Both the position numbers and the translations under genes were made by a program. Positions 1-5,276 of a DNA stretch of 5,276 bases are shown in pieces. This DNA comes from a virus (Duplodnaviria; Heunggongvirae; Uroviricota; Caudoviricetes), in the IMG/VR virus record IMGVR_UViG_2534681992_000020. One strand, given 5' to 3'. Position 1 is the first letter of the stretch; the number at the start of each line of letters is the position of its first letter. The notes under the pieces are model-generated. The model searched no databases and was not told the origin of the DNA. It saw only the letters and a program-made list of their open reading frames with translations.

Positions 1-47
1 ACCCAGTTCTGAGCCTCAAGACGATCCTGAATGTAATAAGCGTTCAT
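1..47 (-). CDS. N-terminal 15 codons of a leftward gene that runs off the left edge of the window; product unknown
   Basis: Minus-strand ATG at 45-47, preceded by AGGAG (complement of 55-59) with a 7-nt spacer. The frame is open to position 1 and reads [15 protein letters not shown]. It lies in the same orientation as the upstream 68-aa gene, consistent with a leftward early operon. Confidence 0.35.
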
Positions 48-122
48 GGCTGAACTCCTGAAAATGGCTGTGAAAATATCGCCCGCGAAATGCCAGGCTG
101 ATTAGGTAAACAGGAAAGGGGA

Positions 123-329
123 TTAGTGATTCAGGCCGTTGCCGCGTCCGTCGAGAAAAACTTCCACGAGCAAATCACGGGTATAAGTGCGCTCGATGCC
201 GCGATGCAGATAAAGCCGTCCGCGTAAATTAGCTGATGCAGTCCAGGTTCCATCTTTGTGTTTGACCAGCATTCCTGGCATGACCGCACCGCGATTAACG
301 GTCTGCGTTCCGTAATGTTGATGAACCAT
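123..329 (-). CDS. hypothetical small protein (68 aa), early-left operon
   Basis: ATG at 327-329 (minus) with a strong AGGAG (complement of 335-339) 5 nt upstream. The translation has a balanced, protein-like composition, unlike the overlapping alternative-frame ORF 131-364. I do not recognise the family. Confidence 0.5.
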   Translation of the reverse strand: MVHQHYGTQTVNRGAVMPGMLVKHKDGTWTASANLRGRLYLHRGIERTYTRDLLVEVFLDGRGNGLNH

Positions 330-596
330 AAAAACTCCTGCCCGTAAGCTGGGCTGCTGAACAAATAAGGGGTTGCGCAGTATCTGGCGGTGGATGGCCG
401 CCGGTTGTCATAACTAAGTCGCCTCGTTGAAGCAACTGAGGTATGAAGTGTTGAGTTGATTTCAGCTGGTCACACCGACGTTCACGCGTCCGTTTCACCC
501 CTCGCACTCCCCGGAGCCTGCTGAAATTCAAGCTGCGGATCTAAGCGGTCATCGCAACGGTGAATCAGGTGGTTGCCGTATCGTTGTGTTGTTGCG

Positions 597-670
597 ACAT
601 GGTGATAATAGCCATTGCTATTGGTGATATTAATACTTATTGCTATTGTTAGATGTGTTTTGCTATTAAA
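597..670 (-). promoter_or_regulatory. OL-like operator cluster with a putative leftward promoter (pL-like)
   Basis: Three copies of TTGCTATT at 615-622, 640-647 and 660-667. The first lies in a perfect inverted repeat AATAGC-catt-GCTATT (607-622); the second is an imperfect version, AATACT-tatt-GCTATT (632-647). On the minus strand there is a -10 TATTAT (complement of 605-610) and a weak -35 TTAATA (complement of 628-633) with a 17-nt spacer. The same GCTATTAT element forms the -10 of the rightward promoter at 2585-2592. Confidence 0.45.
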
Positions 671-771
671 TGTTTGATGGCAAAAAGAATTAATTTTGTG
701 ACTTGAATCGCATAGCGATAACTGAAGCGAGGTCGTGGTGGTTTTTTGAACGGTTTGTGTGATGAGGGGAG

Positions 772-801
772 GCAAAAGAAAACCCGGCACGGTGGCCGGG
801 T
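772..801 (-). terminator. intrinsic (rho-independent) terminator ending the repressor operon
   Basis: Seven-bp stem ACCCGGC (782-788) paired with GCCGGGT (795-801) around a 6-nt loop. On the minus-strand RNA it is followed by UUUUCUUUUG (complement of 772-781). It begins 5 nt past the stop (806-808) of the 806-1747 gene. The plus-strand side also has a moderately U-rich tail (UAUCUUUAUU), so it may act in both directions. Confidence 0.75.
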
Positions 802-805
802 ATCT

Positions 806-1747
806 TTATTCGAATGGAAGATCTATTTGCCTTTGAGGATTCAACTGTTTTTTTACATGCTCAATTTCGAATATGGTTTTTATGGCATCTCCGATCATAT
901 ATTGAGTTACTTTTAAATCTACAAGTAACATATCACCTTTAGAAAAATTTAAGGTGTTGTTATCAATATCGCTGATGAATTTCTGGTCTTTTATTTCAGC
1001 CAAAAAGCTACTGGCACCATCAGAAAACCGCCACCGGCTTCCTTCATTGAAGGAAATATTTTTAATTTGAAGGGCTTTCTCTACTGTGTACTCTGAAATT
1101 ATTGATTCTGCTGGTAGATTGACTTTGAAATAATGTGCTTCTTGCTTGTTGATCGTCATGAATGTCAAACCATCATCGACAGTAGAGGCAAAGCTGTCAA
1201 TGCCTTCCTGCTCTAATGGCTTACTTATAACTTCTTGTAATGAAGAGCGAAGTTTAATATTTTTATAAAGTTCAATAACGTTACTGTCGTAGATCTCGCT
1301 TTCGTCATCAACAAAGACTTCGATGTTGCTATCAGGCAAATTGTGTAATTTTTTTATTTTCCTTGGACCTATCCATTTTATCAGTTGAATTAGGCCTTTG
1401 CATATTTTTTCTTTAGAACCAGGACAGAGTCCAATAAAAGCAATCAAATTCGCAGCGGCTGTTGCTGAATCGCCGGATAAAAAATCAACAGCCTGTTTGA
1501 ACCAAGATGTAGATGAGGCAACCAGATCTATTCCAAATGAGCCAGCTTTAAATGATGCATTGACTTTTACAGAAACAACAGTCTTGTTTCCGTAGAGAGT
1601 TTTACCGGCTTCCTCTAATGCATCTGATAGTGATAGAAGGGCAGGAGCAAGGTCTCGCACGTTCATTTCATGCGTTTCCAGTGCCGGACCGTCGTATACT
1701 ATCCTGAACTTCATATCATTGGTTTCCGAATTGTTGCCCGCATCCAT
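806..1747 (-). CDS. hypothetical protein (313 aa from ATG 1747; 317 aa if GTG 1759 is used) in the rexAB-equivalent position downstream of the repressor; candidate exclusion/defence gene, function unknown
   Basis: Long uninterrupted minus-strand ORF. The first ATG (1745-1747) follows a GGTGA Shine-Dalgarno-like element by about 9 nt. The gene is visibly AT-rich compared with flanking phage genes. It sits between the repressor stop (1821) and the terminator (782-801), in the same orientation as the repressor and with no terminator in the 1760-1820 spacer. I see no P-loop or other motif I can name. Confidence 0.8.
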   Translation of the reverse strand: MDAGNNSETNDMKFRIVYDGPALETHEMNVRDLAPALLSLSDALEEAGKTLYGNKTVVSVKVNASFKAGSFGIDLVASSTSWFKQAVDFLSGDSATAAANLIAFIGLCPGSKEKICKGLIQLIKWIGPRKIKKLHNLPDSNIEVFVDDESEIYDSNVIELYKNIKLRSSLQEVISKPLEQEGIDSFASTVDDGLTFMTINKQEAHYFKVNLPAESIISEYTVEKALQIKNISFNEGSRWRFSDGASSFLAEIKDQKFISDIDNNTLNFSKGDMLLVDLKVTQYMIGDAIKTIFEIEHVKKQLNPQRQIDLPFE

Positions 1748-1820
1748 TATGGCATTCACCTGATCACATATACAGTTAATTTACGATATTGTCTTAAATC
1801 TTAAAACTTCTATTGTATGG

Positions 1821-2513
1821 CTACCCATGCTTCCTATACGTCTGCGGCATGCTCCCAATAACCTTACCGAAGATGAACACCCGGTTCATCTCGTCTTTCT
1901 CGATCGGGTCCCAAGGTGAGTAGCTCTTGTTATCAGAGATAACCAGCAGCTTATCCTTCATCATTTGCAGACGCTTTACATGGGCTGTGTCGTCGTACAG
2001 AAACGCATAGATACCATCACCGTCGAAAGATTTAACCGTGATATCAACGAACAGCAGATCACCTGGTTCGATCGTTCCTGACATGCTGTCACCACGCACG
2101 TTAATGATGCGGATATTTTCCGCCTTCCTGCCATCGAACATGTGACGAGCATCGTCAAACGAGTACTCAACCGAGCGTAGAACTTCTACAAACTCACGAT
2201 TGATGACACCCGGCCCGGCACTGACTTCTATATCAAGAACGTCAATCTTGAAGTATTTGGAATGGTTGACAGCAGGCTTCCCTGATTGTTGACCGTCATT
2301 TCTCATCGGGCCTATGCCTGATGAGAGCCACTCAGTTCGAACACCCAATGCATTAGCTATTTCAACAATTTTTGTTGAGCCGCGCGCGTTGCCGCTTGTC
2401 AGTCTCCAGATTGTGGGTTGAGCTACGCCAGACGCCTTTGCAAGAGCGCCTTGAGACATTCCAGATTGTTCCATCGCTAGGTTTAAGCAATCAGCAAGAG
2501 TTTCTTTTTTCAT
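1821..2513 (-). CDS. cI: CI-type prophage repressor (N-terminal XRE-family HTH, C-terminal LexA-like S24 autopeptidase)
   Basis: HTH segment SQGALAKASGVAQPTIWRLTSG. Probable Ala-Gly autocleavage site in EVSAGPG. Catalytic serine motif GDSM and lysine motif VKRL, spaced as in LexA and lambda CI. I place the start at ATG 2511-2513 (MKKETL...) because a minus-strand promoter (-35 TTGACC, complement of 2544-2549; -10 TATAAA, complement of 2523-2528) would start transcription at or just before that ATG, giving a leaderless message as for lambda PRM-cI. The ORF track's 2549 start is a TTG with no ribosome-binding site. Confidence 0.9.
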   Translation of the reverse strand: MKKETLADCLNLAMEQSGMSQGALAKASGVAQPTIWRLTSGNARGSTKIVEIANALGVRTEWLSSGIGPMRNDGQQSGKPAVNHSKYFKIDVLDIEVSAGPGVINREFVEVLRSVEYSFDDARHMFDGRKAENIRIINVRGDSMSGTIEPGDLLFVDITVKSFDGDGIYAFLYDDTAHVKRLQMMKDKLLVISDNKSYSPWDPIEKDEMNRVFIFGKVIGSMPQTYRKHG

Positions 2514-2522
2514 AAGTTTTAA

Positions 2523-2607
2523 TTTATACGCTTGCGTATTGATGGTCAAAACACGTTTTGCTATTGATTGGGTTAATACGCATTGCTATTATCTATTCAT
2601 TGCAATA
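2523..2607. promoter_or_regulatory. OR-like operator cluster with divergent promoters (PRM-like leftward, PR-like rightward)
   Basis: Repeats related to the OL sites: ATACGC-tt-GCGTAT palindrome (2526-2539) over the PRM -10; AACACG-tttt-GCTATT (2550-2565) abutting the PRM -35 and overlapping the PR -35; AATACG-catt-GCTATT (2575-2590) overlapping the PR -10; ATTGCAAT palindrome (2599-2606) near the PR +1. PR has -35 TTGATT (2564-2569), a 17-nt spacer and -10 TATTAT (2587-2592). The 2550-2565 site is centred about 43 bp upstream of the predicted PRM start, the position from which lambda CI at OR2 activates PRM. Confidence 0.6.
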
Positions 2608-2623
2608 CCAATAGGAATTGATA

Positions 2624-2851
2624 ATGACAAATCAAACCATTCAACTCGCAATCAGTATTACAGGTAGTCAAAAACGACTGGCAGATCTATGCGGTGTAGC
2701 CCAACCCACTGTTTGGCGTTGGCTACACGGTGGCGGAATTGATGCCCGCTATGTAATGAAAATTGTCTCAGCCACTGGTGGAAAGATTAAACCAGCAGAT
2801 ATTCGTCCCGACCTCGCACCATTGTTTAACGCGAGTAATTCTGCCGCCTAA
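2624..2851 (+). CDS. Cro-like transcriptional regulator of the YdaS family
   Basis: First gene rightward of the PR-like promoter. ATG at 2624 with a GGAA ribosome-binding site (2614-2617); the ORF track's 2618 start is a TTG. The sequence GSQKRLADLCGVAQPTVWRW...ATGGKI...IRPDL matches, from memory, the conserved pattern of YdaS-type Cro proteins (DUF1019). Confidence 0.8.
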   Translation: MTNQTIQLAISITGSQKRLADLCGVAQPTVWRWLHGGGIDARYVMKIVSATGGKIKPADIRPDLAPLFNASNSAA

Positions 2852-2875
2852 ACTGCGGCGTTAACTGATAAGGCA

Positions 2876-3421
2876 ATGACTATGCAATCACTTACATACC
2901 AACAGACTAGCGGATTTAGCCCGACTGCGGTGATAAATCGTTCTCAAACAAAACAGGCGCCAGGCCACGAAAAAATCCGTGATGCCGTTCGCGCCTGGTC
3001 GGCTGCAGATAATCAGGATGTTGTTGCCGCACTCATTGTGAATGAGTATCGGGAGCAGGGCGGCGGCACCATCGATTTCCCTGATGATGTCAGCCGTGCA
3101 CGCCAGAAGCTGTTCCGCTTCCTCGATAACAAATTCGATTCTGAAAAATACCGAAATAACGTGCGTGAACTGACCCCGGCAATTCTGGCGGTACTACCGC
3201 TGGAATATCGCGGCCACCTGGTTGGGCAGGATAGCTTCATGGCTCGGCTGGCTGAAATGGAAAAGGAACTCAGTGAGGCAAAACAGGCTGTCATTCTCAA
3301 CGCACCACGCCACCAGAAACTGAAGGAGATGAGTGAAGGCATTGTGTCGATGTTTCGTGTGGACCCGGATCTGGCTGGTCCACTGATGGCGATGGTCACC
3401 ACCATGCTGGGGGCAATATGA
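2876..3421 (+). CDS. YdaT-family protein (functional analogue of CII in YdaS/YdaT-type immunity regions)
   Basis: Occupies the cII position immediately after cro. The motifs NEYREQGGGTIDFP and LTPAILAVLPLEYRGHL match, from memory, the conserved core of E. coli YdaT-family proteins. Start is ATG 2876 or 2882; the second has better spacing to the AGG at 2872-2873. Its stop overlaps an in-frame ATG of the next reading frame (ATGA at 3418-3421). Confidence 0.7.
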   Translation: MTMQSLTYQQTSGFSPTAVINRSQTKQAPGHEKIRDAVRAWSAADNQDVVAALIVNEYREQGGGTIDFPDDVSRARQKLFRFLDNKFDSEKYRNNVRELTPAILAVLPLEYRGHLVGQDSFMARLAEMEKELSEAKQAVILNAPRHQKLKEMSEGIVSMFRVDPDLAGPLMAMVTTMLGAI

Positions 3422-3507
3422 CAGGTTCAGAAATGGCGAAAGCCGGTCTGCGCGAACAGAACCGACTTTCAGGTGCAAATCGTAACACACTCATTGCGGG
3501 AGGAATT

Positions 3508-4437
3508 ATGGCAAACACTGCTGAGATATTCAATTTTCCAGTGCCGGATGTGGCACAAAAGGAGCCGCGCGTGGCAGATCTCGATGATGGTTATACGCGC
3601 ATTGCAAATGAGTTGCTGGAAGCTGTAATGCTGGCCGGATTAAAACAGCACCAGCTTCTGGTCTTCCTGGCTGTCATGCGCAAAACATATGGCTTTAATA
3701 AAAAACTGGATTGGGTGAGCAACGAGCAACTTTCCGAATTGACCGGGATATTGCCGCACAAGTGTTCTGCTGCAAAAAGCGTTCTGGTAAAGCGTGGGAT
3801 TCTTATTCAGAGCGGGCGGAATATCGGCATCAATAATGTGGTCAGTGAATGGTCAACATTACCCGAATCAGGTAAGAAAAATAAAGTTTACCTGAAAGAG
3901 GTAAATTTACCTGAGTCAGGTAAGAAAAGTTTACCCAAATCAGGTAAAGGCACTTACCCGAATCAGGTAAACACAAAAGACAAACTAACAAAAGACAATA
4001 TAAAACCTTTTTCGTCCGAGAATTCTGACGAATCCTCTGACCAGCCAGAAAATGCCCTTCCTGTGGTGAAACCGGATGCTGCGATTCAGAGCGGCAGCAA
4101 GTGGGGGACAGCAGAAGACCTGACCGCCGCAGAGTGGATGTTTGACATGGTGAAGACCATCGCGCCATCAGCCAGAAAACCGAATTTTGCAGGGTGGGCT
4201 AACGATATTCGCCTGATGCGTGAACGTGACGGACGTAACCACCGCGACATGTGCGTGCTGTTCCGCTGGGCATGCCAGGACAACTTCTGGTCCGGTAACG
4301 TGCTAAGTCCGGCCAAACTCCGCGACAAGTGGACCCAACTCGAAATCAACCGTAACAAGCAACAGGCTGGCGTGACAGCCGGAAAACCAAAACTCGACCT
4401 GACGAACACTGACTGGATTTACGGGGTGGAGCTATGA
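3508..4437 (+). CDS. O: replication initiation protein O (lambda O family) with a divergent iteron-binding N-terminal domain and a lambda-like C-terminal domain
   Basis: ATG 3508 has a GGAGG (3498-3502) 5 nt upstream. The N-terminus MANTAEIFNF...VADLDDGYTRIANELLEA aligns with lambda O (MTNTAKILNF...VADLDDGYARLSNMLLEA, recalled). The C-terminal ~110 aa (SKWGTAEDLTAAEWMFDMVKTIAPSARKPNFAGWANDIRLMRERDGRNHRDMCVLFRW...WIYGVEL) look almost identical to lambda O as I recall it. Iterons lie inside the gene. The ORF track's 3418 start adds 30 residues with no counterpart in lambda O. Confidence 0.9.
   Translation: MANTAEIFNFPVPDVAQKEPRVADLDDGYTRIANELLEAVMLAGLKQHQLLVFLAVMRKTYGFNKKLDWVSNEQLSELTGILPHKCSAAKSVLVKRGILIQSGRNIGINNVVSEWSTLPESGKKNKVYLKEVNLPESGKKSLPKSGKGTYPNQVNTKDKLTKDNIKPFSSENSDESSDQPENALPVVKPDAAIQSGSKWGTAEDLTAAEWMFDMVKTIAPSARKPNFAGWANDIRLMRERDGRNHRDMCVLFRWACQDNFWSGNVLSPAKLRDKWTQLEINRNKQQAGVTAGKPKLDLTNTDWIYGVEL
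3859..3970. repeat. origin of replication: five iterons (TTACC-N7-GGTAA) followed by an A-rich tract (3971-4013)
   Basis: Iterons at 3859-3876 (ttacccgaatcaggtaag), 3888-3904 (ttacctgaaagaggtaa), 3907-3924 (ttacctgagtcaggtaag), 3931-3949 (ttacccaaatcaggtaaag) and 3954-3970 (ttacccgaatcaggtaa). Each has perfect inverted arms TTACC/GGTAA. They are followed by acacaaaagacaaactaacaaaagacaatataaaacc. This matches lambda ori architecture (iterons plus AT-rich region inside O) but the iteron sequence differs from lambda. Confidence 0.8.
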
Positions 4438-5087
4438 AAAACATCGCCGCACAGATGGTTAATTTTGACCGTGAGCAGATGCGCCGGATCGCCAATAACA
4501 TGCCGGAACAGTACGACGAAAAGCCGCAGGTACAGCAGGTAGCGCAGATTATCAATGGTGTGTTCAGCCAGTTACTGGCAACTTTCCCGGCGAGCCTGGC
4601 TAACCGGGACCAGAATGAACTGAACGAAATCCGCCGCCAGTGGGTTCTGGCTTTCCGGGAAAACGGGATCACCACGATGGAACAGGTTAACGCAGGAATG
4701 CGCGTAGCCCGTCGGCAGAATCGACCATTTCTGCCATCACCCGGGCAGTTTGTTGCATGGTGCCGGGAAGAAGCATCCGTTATCGCCGGACTGCCAAACG
4801 TCAGCGAGCTGGTTGATATGGTTTACGAGTATTGCCGGAAGCGAGGCCTGTATCCGGATGCGGAGTCTTATCCGTGGAAATCAAACGCGCACTACTGGCT
4901 GGTTACCAACCTGTATCAGAACATGCGGGCCAATGCGCTTACTGATGCGGAATTACGCCGTAAGGCCGCAGATGAGCTTGTCCATATGACTGCGAGAATT
5001 AACCGTGGTGAGGCGATCCCTGAACCAGTAAAACAACTTCCTGTCATGGGCGGTAGACCTCTAAATCGTGGTAAGCGTACAGCCTGA
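4434..5087 (+). CDS. P: replication protein P (lambda P, DnaB helicase loader), C-terminally truncated and fused to IS-derived codons
   Basis: The start overlaps the O stop (ATGA at 4434-4437), as in lambda. Residues 1 to about 212 (MKNIAAQMVNFDREQMRRIANNMPEQYDEKPQVQQ...PVMGGRPLNR) match lambda P as I recall it. After codon 212 the sequence departs from lambda (expected AQALAKIAEIKAKFGLKGASV) and reads GKRTA-stop, encoded by the inserted element starting at about 5071. Confidence 0.9.
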   Translation: MKNIAAQMVNFDREQMRRIANNMPEQYDEKPQVQQVAQIINGVFSQLLATFPASLANRDQNELNEIRRQWVLAFRENGITTMEQVNAGMRVARRQNRPFLPSPGQFVAWCREEASVIAGLPNVSELVDMVYEYCRKRGLYPDAESYPWKSNAHYWLVTNLYQNMRANALTDAELRRKAADELVHMTARINRGEAIPEPVKQLPVMGGRPLNRGKRTA

Positions 5088-5276
5088 ACCGTCTGGTCAG
5101 AATCTGACGAATTAGACAAAGTGGTGTCCACCAAATAAGTAGTGGGAACCAAAGTGTCAGATATGCAGAAAAATGTGACTCCCGGCAGGCGAAAAGGCTG
5201 CCCTAATTATCCTCCCGAATTTAAACAGCAGCTCGTTGCTGCCTCCTGTGAACCCGGGATATCCATCTCAAAACTT
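5071..5276 (+). mobile_element. left end of an insertion sequence (probably IS66-family-like) inserted into the 3' end of P; continues beyond the window
   Basis: Lambda-like P sequence stops abruptly after ...aaatcgtg (5070). The new sequence begins GTAAGCG (5071-5077), the terminal motif I recall for IS66-family inverted repeats. A transposase-type ORF starts 92 bp inside. The right end and any target-site duplication are outside the window. Confidence 0.55.
5163..5276 (+). CDS. transposase accessory protein OrfA/TnpA (HTH), N-terminal 38 codons; partial at the right edge
   Basis: ATG at 5163; open frame to the end of the window reading MQKNVTPGRRKGCPNYPPEFKQQLVAASCEPGISISKL. The Y-x2-EFK-x2-V...S-x-S pattern is typical of the small HTH first ORF of IS3/IS66-type elements. 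It is absent from the ORF track only because it has no stop inside the window. Confidence 0.6.
   Translation, partial: MQKNVTPGRRKGCPNYPPEFKQQLVAASCEPGISISKL

Follow-up and report, generated by a model that had tools for sequence, protein, structure and literature searches.

Replication gene P of a lambdoid prophage in Escherichia coli O103:H25 strain CVM9340 is interrupted by an insertion sequence (IS), and our results support reading the altered end of the gene in this way and not as a natural variant of the P C terminus. In the account that we consider probable, an ISEc22-like element of the IS66 family recently hopped into codon 213 of P, the resulting allele is most likely null or strongly hypomorphic, and the prophage would not replicate on its own. 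The stretch of DNA that was analysed (5,276 bp; hereafter, the window) is the entire draft contig AJVQ01000008.1 of assembly GCA_000263895.1, as checked by sequence identity, and its truncated P has been deposited as EIL11129.1 ("P protein [Escherichia coli O103:H25 str. CVM9340]") and also as WP_000788879.1.

P is called on the plus strand as an open reading frame of 217 aa (positions 4434 to 5087). When P and the 206 bases downstream of it were compared by megablast with 5,426 complete E. coli genomes, the nucleotide homology of P ended at position 5070 (query bases 1 to 637, corresponding to 4434 to 5070). At the protein level, lambda P (PDB 8V9T, 233 aa) aligned over P residues 1 to 212 with an E value of 2.5e-141, and the alignment decayed after the residues GGRPLNR. 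The breakpoint lies between 5070 and 5071 and is unambiguous, with zero bases common to the tip of the IS and the P sequence that it displaced. The last intact P codon is 212 (CGT, Arg), whereas codon 213 (5070 to 5072) has been changed from GCA (Ala) to GGT (Gly) and is followed by AAG CGT ACA GCC TGA. The resulting protein is P(1-212) with the tail GKRTA, which is read together with its TGA stop codon (5085 to 5087) from the left inverted repeat of the IS (fusion tail and stop, 5070 to 5087, plus strand). The 21 codons that are lost (213 to 233), approximately the last 9% of the protein, correspond to the segment AQALAKIAEIKAKFGLKGASL of the intact allele. The first-pass annotation, made from the letters of the window, had estimated that about 21 P codons were replaced by 5 IS codons and a stop, a count that proves to be exact, and the 8 bases that it had marked to the left of the IS are indeed AAATCGTG, directly adjacent to the element (5063 to 5070, plus strand).

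Its central claim, that an IS truncates P, also holds, in that the sequence from 5071 onward is the exact terminus of an IS66-family element. Positions 5071 to 5276 (plus strand) comprise a left inverted repeat starting GTAAGCGTACAGCC and an untranslated leader, end with the contig, and are identical at 206 of 206 positions to the first 206 bases of a full IS66-family element (locus L001, 3501 to 3706). The reference copy that we used (L001, 3501 to 5941) is one complete copy chosen among thousands matching the 206 bases. It is 2,441 bp in length, starts GTAAGCGTACAGCC, has imperfect inverted repeats of approximately 22 bp, and is bordered on both sides by the 8-bp direct repeat AATCAACC. Its genes encode TnpA (HTH_Tnp_1), TnpB (TnpB_IS66), and a 512-aa DDE_Tnp_IS66 transposase, of which the window itself holds only the first 38 codons of the accessory gene tnpA (5163 to 5276, plus strand, starting MQKNVTPGRRKGCPNYPPEFKQQLVAASCEPGISISKL; the annotated tnpA start, L001 3593, is equivalent to position 5163), in the same orientation as P. 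A terminus of the GTAAGCG type has been reported for other IS66 members (PMC12888890). Positions 5071 to 5078 of the window read GTAAGCGT, and its reverse complement, GTAAGCGTGCAGC, closes the reference copy. The 206-base query alone retrieved thousands of copies annotated as [quoted passage not shown] where "ISEc22 family" is a PGAP label and not an ISfinder assignment. The element therefore resembles the IS66 family of E. coli (ISEc22/ISEc8/IS679 group) in its terminal GTAAGCGT and in the 100% identity of its first 206 bases to annotated copies. It differs in scope, with only the left 206 bases lying in the window, whereas the three-gene layout and the 8-bp duplication are known from the reference copy.

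The allele as it was before the insertion is represented in the complete genome of strain 2013C-3264, whose serotype is also O103:H25 (PMC7285328). Positions 1 to 5070 of the window match a prophage of this genome with zero mismatches, and the first mismatch is at 5071. In this sister prophage, an intact P of 233 aa precedes ren, ninB, and the remainder of the nin region. The sister prophage, of approximately 45 kb and adjoining dsdC/torI, is collinear and otherwise complete downstream of P. P occurs at three loci in the 2013C-3264 genome, bet/gam at three places, and the IS at about 10 (the query of P plus IS found 13 places and P alone 3). A natural alternative P C terminus was considered and rejected, as the replacing sequence is an exact IS tip and a strain of the same serotype has the uninterrupted allele in a prophage that is otherwise 100% identical over the window. 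With regard to the rest of the sister prophage (L002, 28646 to 29070; L004, 14134 to 23868), a small-terminase-like gene and gpJ are flagged as frameshifted, and the annotation shows no integrase belonging to the prophage at its ends, including the tail-fibre end; an abutting second prophage has a frameshifted integrase. The frameshift flags in the 2013C-3264 prophages may reflect real defects or sequencing errors.

The contig of CVM9340 stops 206 bases into the IS, and the left junction is the one visible. Both contig ends coincide with sequences present in several copies in the sister genome, the usual cause of breaks in short-read assemblies. The event is consistent with a simple insertion with an 8-bp duplication, in which case the right junction would read ...GCTGCACGCTTAC AAATCGTG CACAGGCTCTGGCG..., with the 21 remaining P codons and ren coming next; the duplication of AAATCGTG at the right end of the IS is expected by analogy with the reference copy. 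Exact searches gave 0 matches to the left junction in the genome contig collection, 0 matches to it in the metagenome contig collection, and 0 matches to the predicted right junction in the genome contig collection. The junction of P and IS was likewise found in 0 of the 5,426 complete E. coli genomes, where no place covered both parts in megablast. An exact-protein look-up retrieved only the contig of the window itself, and in a collection of approximately 15 billion proteins, the truncated P is recorded on one contig. Because the allele is confined to a single contig, is found in none of the 5,426 genomes, and shows no flanking difference from the intact allele, the transposition appears to have been very recent and private to the strain. 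These comparisons point to a transposition of very recent date in a lineage rich in insertion sequences.

The structural role of the lost segment is known from a 2025 study of E. coli DnaB and lambda P by cryo-EM and crystallography (PMC12661323). P consists of domain I (residues 1 to 29, the N-terminal lasso), domain II (approximately 30 to 119, which forms the P-P ensemble), domain III (approximately 120 to 192, which binds between the DnaB C-terminal domains), and domain IV (193 to 233, the C-terminal lasso or grappling hook) (PMC12661323). The helix of the C-terminal lasso is the only part of P that is ordered in all six protomers of the B6P6 complex, and in two of them, the domain IV helix is the sole ordered part (residues 211 to 232 and 210 to 233) (PMC12661323). 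It sits at the nexus of the DH helix (290 to 307) and the LH helix (182 to 199) of adjacent DnaB subunits, burying approximately 1,400 Å2 per protomer in a three-helix bundle that replaces DH-LH packing, and it contacts DnaB through P residues Ala215, Lys218, Ile219, Ile222, and Phe226 (PMC12661323). The authors propose that the lasso segment binds first and that DH-LH disruption takes place before ring opening; the N-terminal lasso also binds a DH helix, and domain III has separate contacts with the DnaB C-terminal domain (CTD) (PMC12661323).

The first-pass annotation had stated that the lost region of P binds DnaB, and the structures bear this out, as residues 213 to 233 are the lasso helix that packs on the DH and LH helices (PMC12661323). 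All of the named DnaB contacts (A215, K218, I219, I222, and F226) are absent from P(1-212)GKRTA, and the whole C-terminal lasso helix is gone. Codons 1 to 212 (4434 to 5069, plus strand) of this lambda-type gene for a DnaB helicase loader still encode domains I to III and the extended part of domain IV. The protein resembles lambda P (PDB 6BBM, 8V9T, 9OA1, and 9OA2) in that residues 1 to 212 are approximately 98% identical and in that the gene follows O with its iterons through an ATGA overlap, but it differs in that the helix at residues 213 to 233, which binds the DH/LH nexus of DnaB, is missing and five IS-encoded residues stand in its place. The Pfam model Phage_lambda_P (PF06992) matches P residues 38 to 198 with an E value of 4e-62; this core is untouched, and P lies directly 3' of O. 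Because the model ends at residue 198, the defect is invisible to domain annotation. The truncated P scores as a complete Pfam domain and carries the NCBI name "replication protein P" with no partial flag.

The effect of the lesion on helicase loading can be predicted by analogy with the lambda P structures, which provide strong structural grounds for loss of function. P(1-212)GKRTA would retain its N-terminal lasso, domain II for oligomerisation, domain III for binding the DnaB CTD, and the extended linker, and residual binding to DnaB via domain III and the N-terminal lasso is possible. The lost lasso helix is the wedge inserted where the DH and LH helices of adjacent DnaB subunits meet; in the structural model, it is the first segment to bind and drives ring opening. 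Helicase loading at the prophage origin would therefore most likely be abolished or strongly reduced. The IS lies in the orientation of the pR operon and of P, at a position between P and ren, nin, and Q; an element of 2.4 kb would separate ren, the nin region, and Q from pR, and a polar effect on late-gene activation is plausible. The induced prophage would not be expected to replicate autonomously unless another resident lambdoid prophage supplied P. The replication initiator gene O (3418 to 4437, plus strand; Phage_rep_O) is intact and identical to that of the sister prophage, and a repeat search identified five ori iterons TTACCYGARTCAGGTAA inside it (3859 to 3975, plus strand). As O and the five iterons, the cis-acting partner of P, are intact, the defect would be confined to P, a diffusible protein, and since the sister genome has two P loci besides this one, P supplied in trans could complement it. 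In this region we also noted an A-rich stretch 3' of the iterons, as in an intact lambda-type origin, and an ambiguity in the start of O. The ATG at 3418, which overlaps the stop codon of the cII-like gene, would give a protein of 339 aa, and an internal ATG at 3508, located after GGAGG, would give one of approximately 309 aa, which is closer in length to lambda O (299 aa).

Could the truncated P still be functional enough for replication? Domain III and the N-terminal lasso make their own contacts with DnaB and the Pfam core is whole, and distant P-like loaders diverge in sequence after approximately residue 200. P also tolerates a C-terminal tag of 66 aa, which indicates that the terminus is not exquisitely sensitive; removal of 76 codons at the N terminus gives a null allele (PMC3640518). 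We nevertheless regard sufficient function as unlikely. The lasso helix is the largest single interface named for P and is proposed to shear DH-LH and open the ring, and every functional relative keeps the C-terminal extension: in the viable phages lambda, 21, 933W, and Perceval, P aligned to residue 233, in Klebsiella phages (approximately 62% identity) to residue 228, and in a Yersinia phage (47%) to residue 232. The break that the IS makes in the pR operon ahead of ren, nin, and Q also counts against a functional outcome. In the literature on C-terminal truncations of lambda P, we found no published P lacking the lasso helix (213 to 233).

The event itself may be read in other ways than as a plain transposition. 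A rearrangement mediated by the IS, in which a deletion or inversion put other DNA than the rest of P, ren, and nin to its right and much more than 21 codons were lost, would be compatible with a contig that ends inside the IS and displays one junction, and the approximately 10 IS copies in the sister chromosome provide substrates for recombination. At the left junction, the IS terminus is clean, as would be seen for plain transposition, the sister prophage has a complete, collinear arrangement downstream of P, and we obtained no positive support for a rearrangement, which we judge distinctly unlikely. We consider it most improbable that the join between P and the IS is chimeric or derives from another P gene, with the P of this prophage being intact. 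The contig is a short one from a draft assembly, both of its ends lie in DNA found repeatedly in the sister genome (bet/gam and P three times each, the IS about 10 times), and it is the assembler that linked the junction to this prophage. A random chimeric join is nevertheless unlikely because the join sits on the precise terminal base of the IS, a position rarely hit by random chimeras, and for the same reason (the terminal GTAAGCG) transposition is favoured over misassembly. Mixing with another P gene is countered by the 637 P bases before the join, over which identity is 100% to the P gene at the corresponding place in the sister prophage and at most 99.2% to the next best P genes of E. coli. 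Transposition of the IS66-family element into this P gene thus remains our preferred reading.

The remainder of the window includes the immunity region. On the minus strand lie the start of gam (1 to 47, assigned by position in the sister genome 2013C-3264), a Kil/KilR-like gene (123 to 329), a 313-aa gene in the slot held by rex in lambda (806 to 1747), and an S24/HTH repressor gene (1821 to 2513), and on the plus strand, a Cro-like gene (2624 to 2851; Pfam "YdaS") and a CII-like gene (2882 to 3421; Pfam "YdaT") precede O. The repressor, its operators, and the gene in the rex slot had been described as looking intact, and Pfam, defence-family, and operator searches agree with that description. 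The 313-aa product has a full-length match to the PADLOC family PDC-S42, a candidate for anti-phage defence (E = 3e-86), and belongs to a PHROG of unknown function, with no match in Pfam; a terminator-like hairpin is present beside its gene (801 to 782, minus strand). The octamer TTGCTATT occurs five times (chance, 0.26), with three copies to the left of the repressor operon (615, 640, and 660) and two in the gap between the repressor gene and cro (2558 and 2583). These sites, within 609 to 667 and 2527 to 2590, are putatively operator half-sites, three for oL and two or three for oR, and the octamers flank promoter-like sites at 633 to 605 (minus strand), 2549 to 2521 (minus strand), and 2564 to 2592 (plus strand). 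The same immunity type is found in the isolated viable phages Perceval, 4A7, and PhiR70_1, which have a full-length P. As such viable phages exist, the module is functional when intact. Viable phages with the same immunity region differ in the rex slot, with only 70% of positions 1 to 3420 of the window being covered. Between the pL-like promoter and the kil-like gene (330 to 600), the position held by N in lambda, we found no annotated or convincing open reading frame in the window and no CDS in the sister genome, and an Rfam scan of the window gave no matches. If the phage lacks N-type antitermination, the polar effect of an insertion in the pR operon would be stronger.

The first-pass annotation had further proposed that the pattern fits a domesticated prophage kept for functions expressed in the lysogen, and our results, which cover 5 kb of the prophage, do not sustain this. 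The allele is a singleton without divergence from an intact relative, and the lesion is not shared between strains in the manner of a retained cryptic prophage, being present in 0 of the 5,426 complete genomes while the strain of the same serotype is intact. It could be argued that loss of P was adaptive, for example by blocking lethal in situ replication of a prophage that cannot excise, with the cargo of the repressor operon being kept. Natural insertions in lambda O or P have been recovered from cells that survived because the insertion spared them killing through replication of a lambda fragment unable to excise (PMC3640518). The sister prophage, with two genes flagged as frameshifted and an annotation that places no integrase belonging to it at its ends, and the rex-slot gene, which matches a candidate anti-phage family, are in line with such a benefit. 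We consider selected domestication improbable in this case: one contig with zero divergence gives no sign of retention over time or of recurrence, and a single IS hop in the IS-rich genome of a Shiga-toxin-producing E. coli (STEC) strain needs no selection. A more elaborate proposal, that P(1-212) is a natural separation-of-function variant that keeps the DnaB contacts of domains II and III but has lost ring opening, and that it was selected against lethal in situ replication or toxic sequestration of DnaB in a lysogen that keeps its repressor operon and PDC-S42 gene, seems very doubtful. The observations compatible with a benefit to the host, namely, the rescue from killing, the defects of the sister prophage, and the PDC-S42 match, do not show selection on this allele.

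Disruption of prophage genes by insertion sequences is commonplace in STEC. The insertion described here is real and had been read correctly in part, and it is an ordinary strain-private knockout by an IS. It resembles the IS-inactivated lambdoid prophages of STEC and the laboratory P::insertion mutants of lambda in that a mobile element hits an essential early gene and leaves the immunity region intact, but it differs from them in that only the last 9% of the protein is lost and the knockout is deduced from structure. The case is of mild interest in that the lesion removes exactly one structurally defined element and does so unseen by domain annotation. It has little importance beyond the annotation itself, in which the protein listed as "replication protein P" (EIL11129.1/WP_000788879.1) is an IS-truncated allele. 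The allele could be used for a genetic test of the ring-opening model derived from cryo-EM. For the genomics of STEC, it represents a further case in which an IS disables a prophage, and it bears on the prediction of which prophages are inducible.
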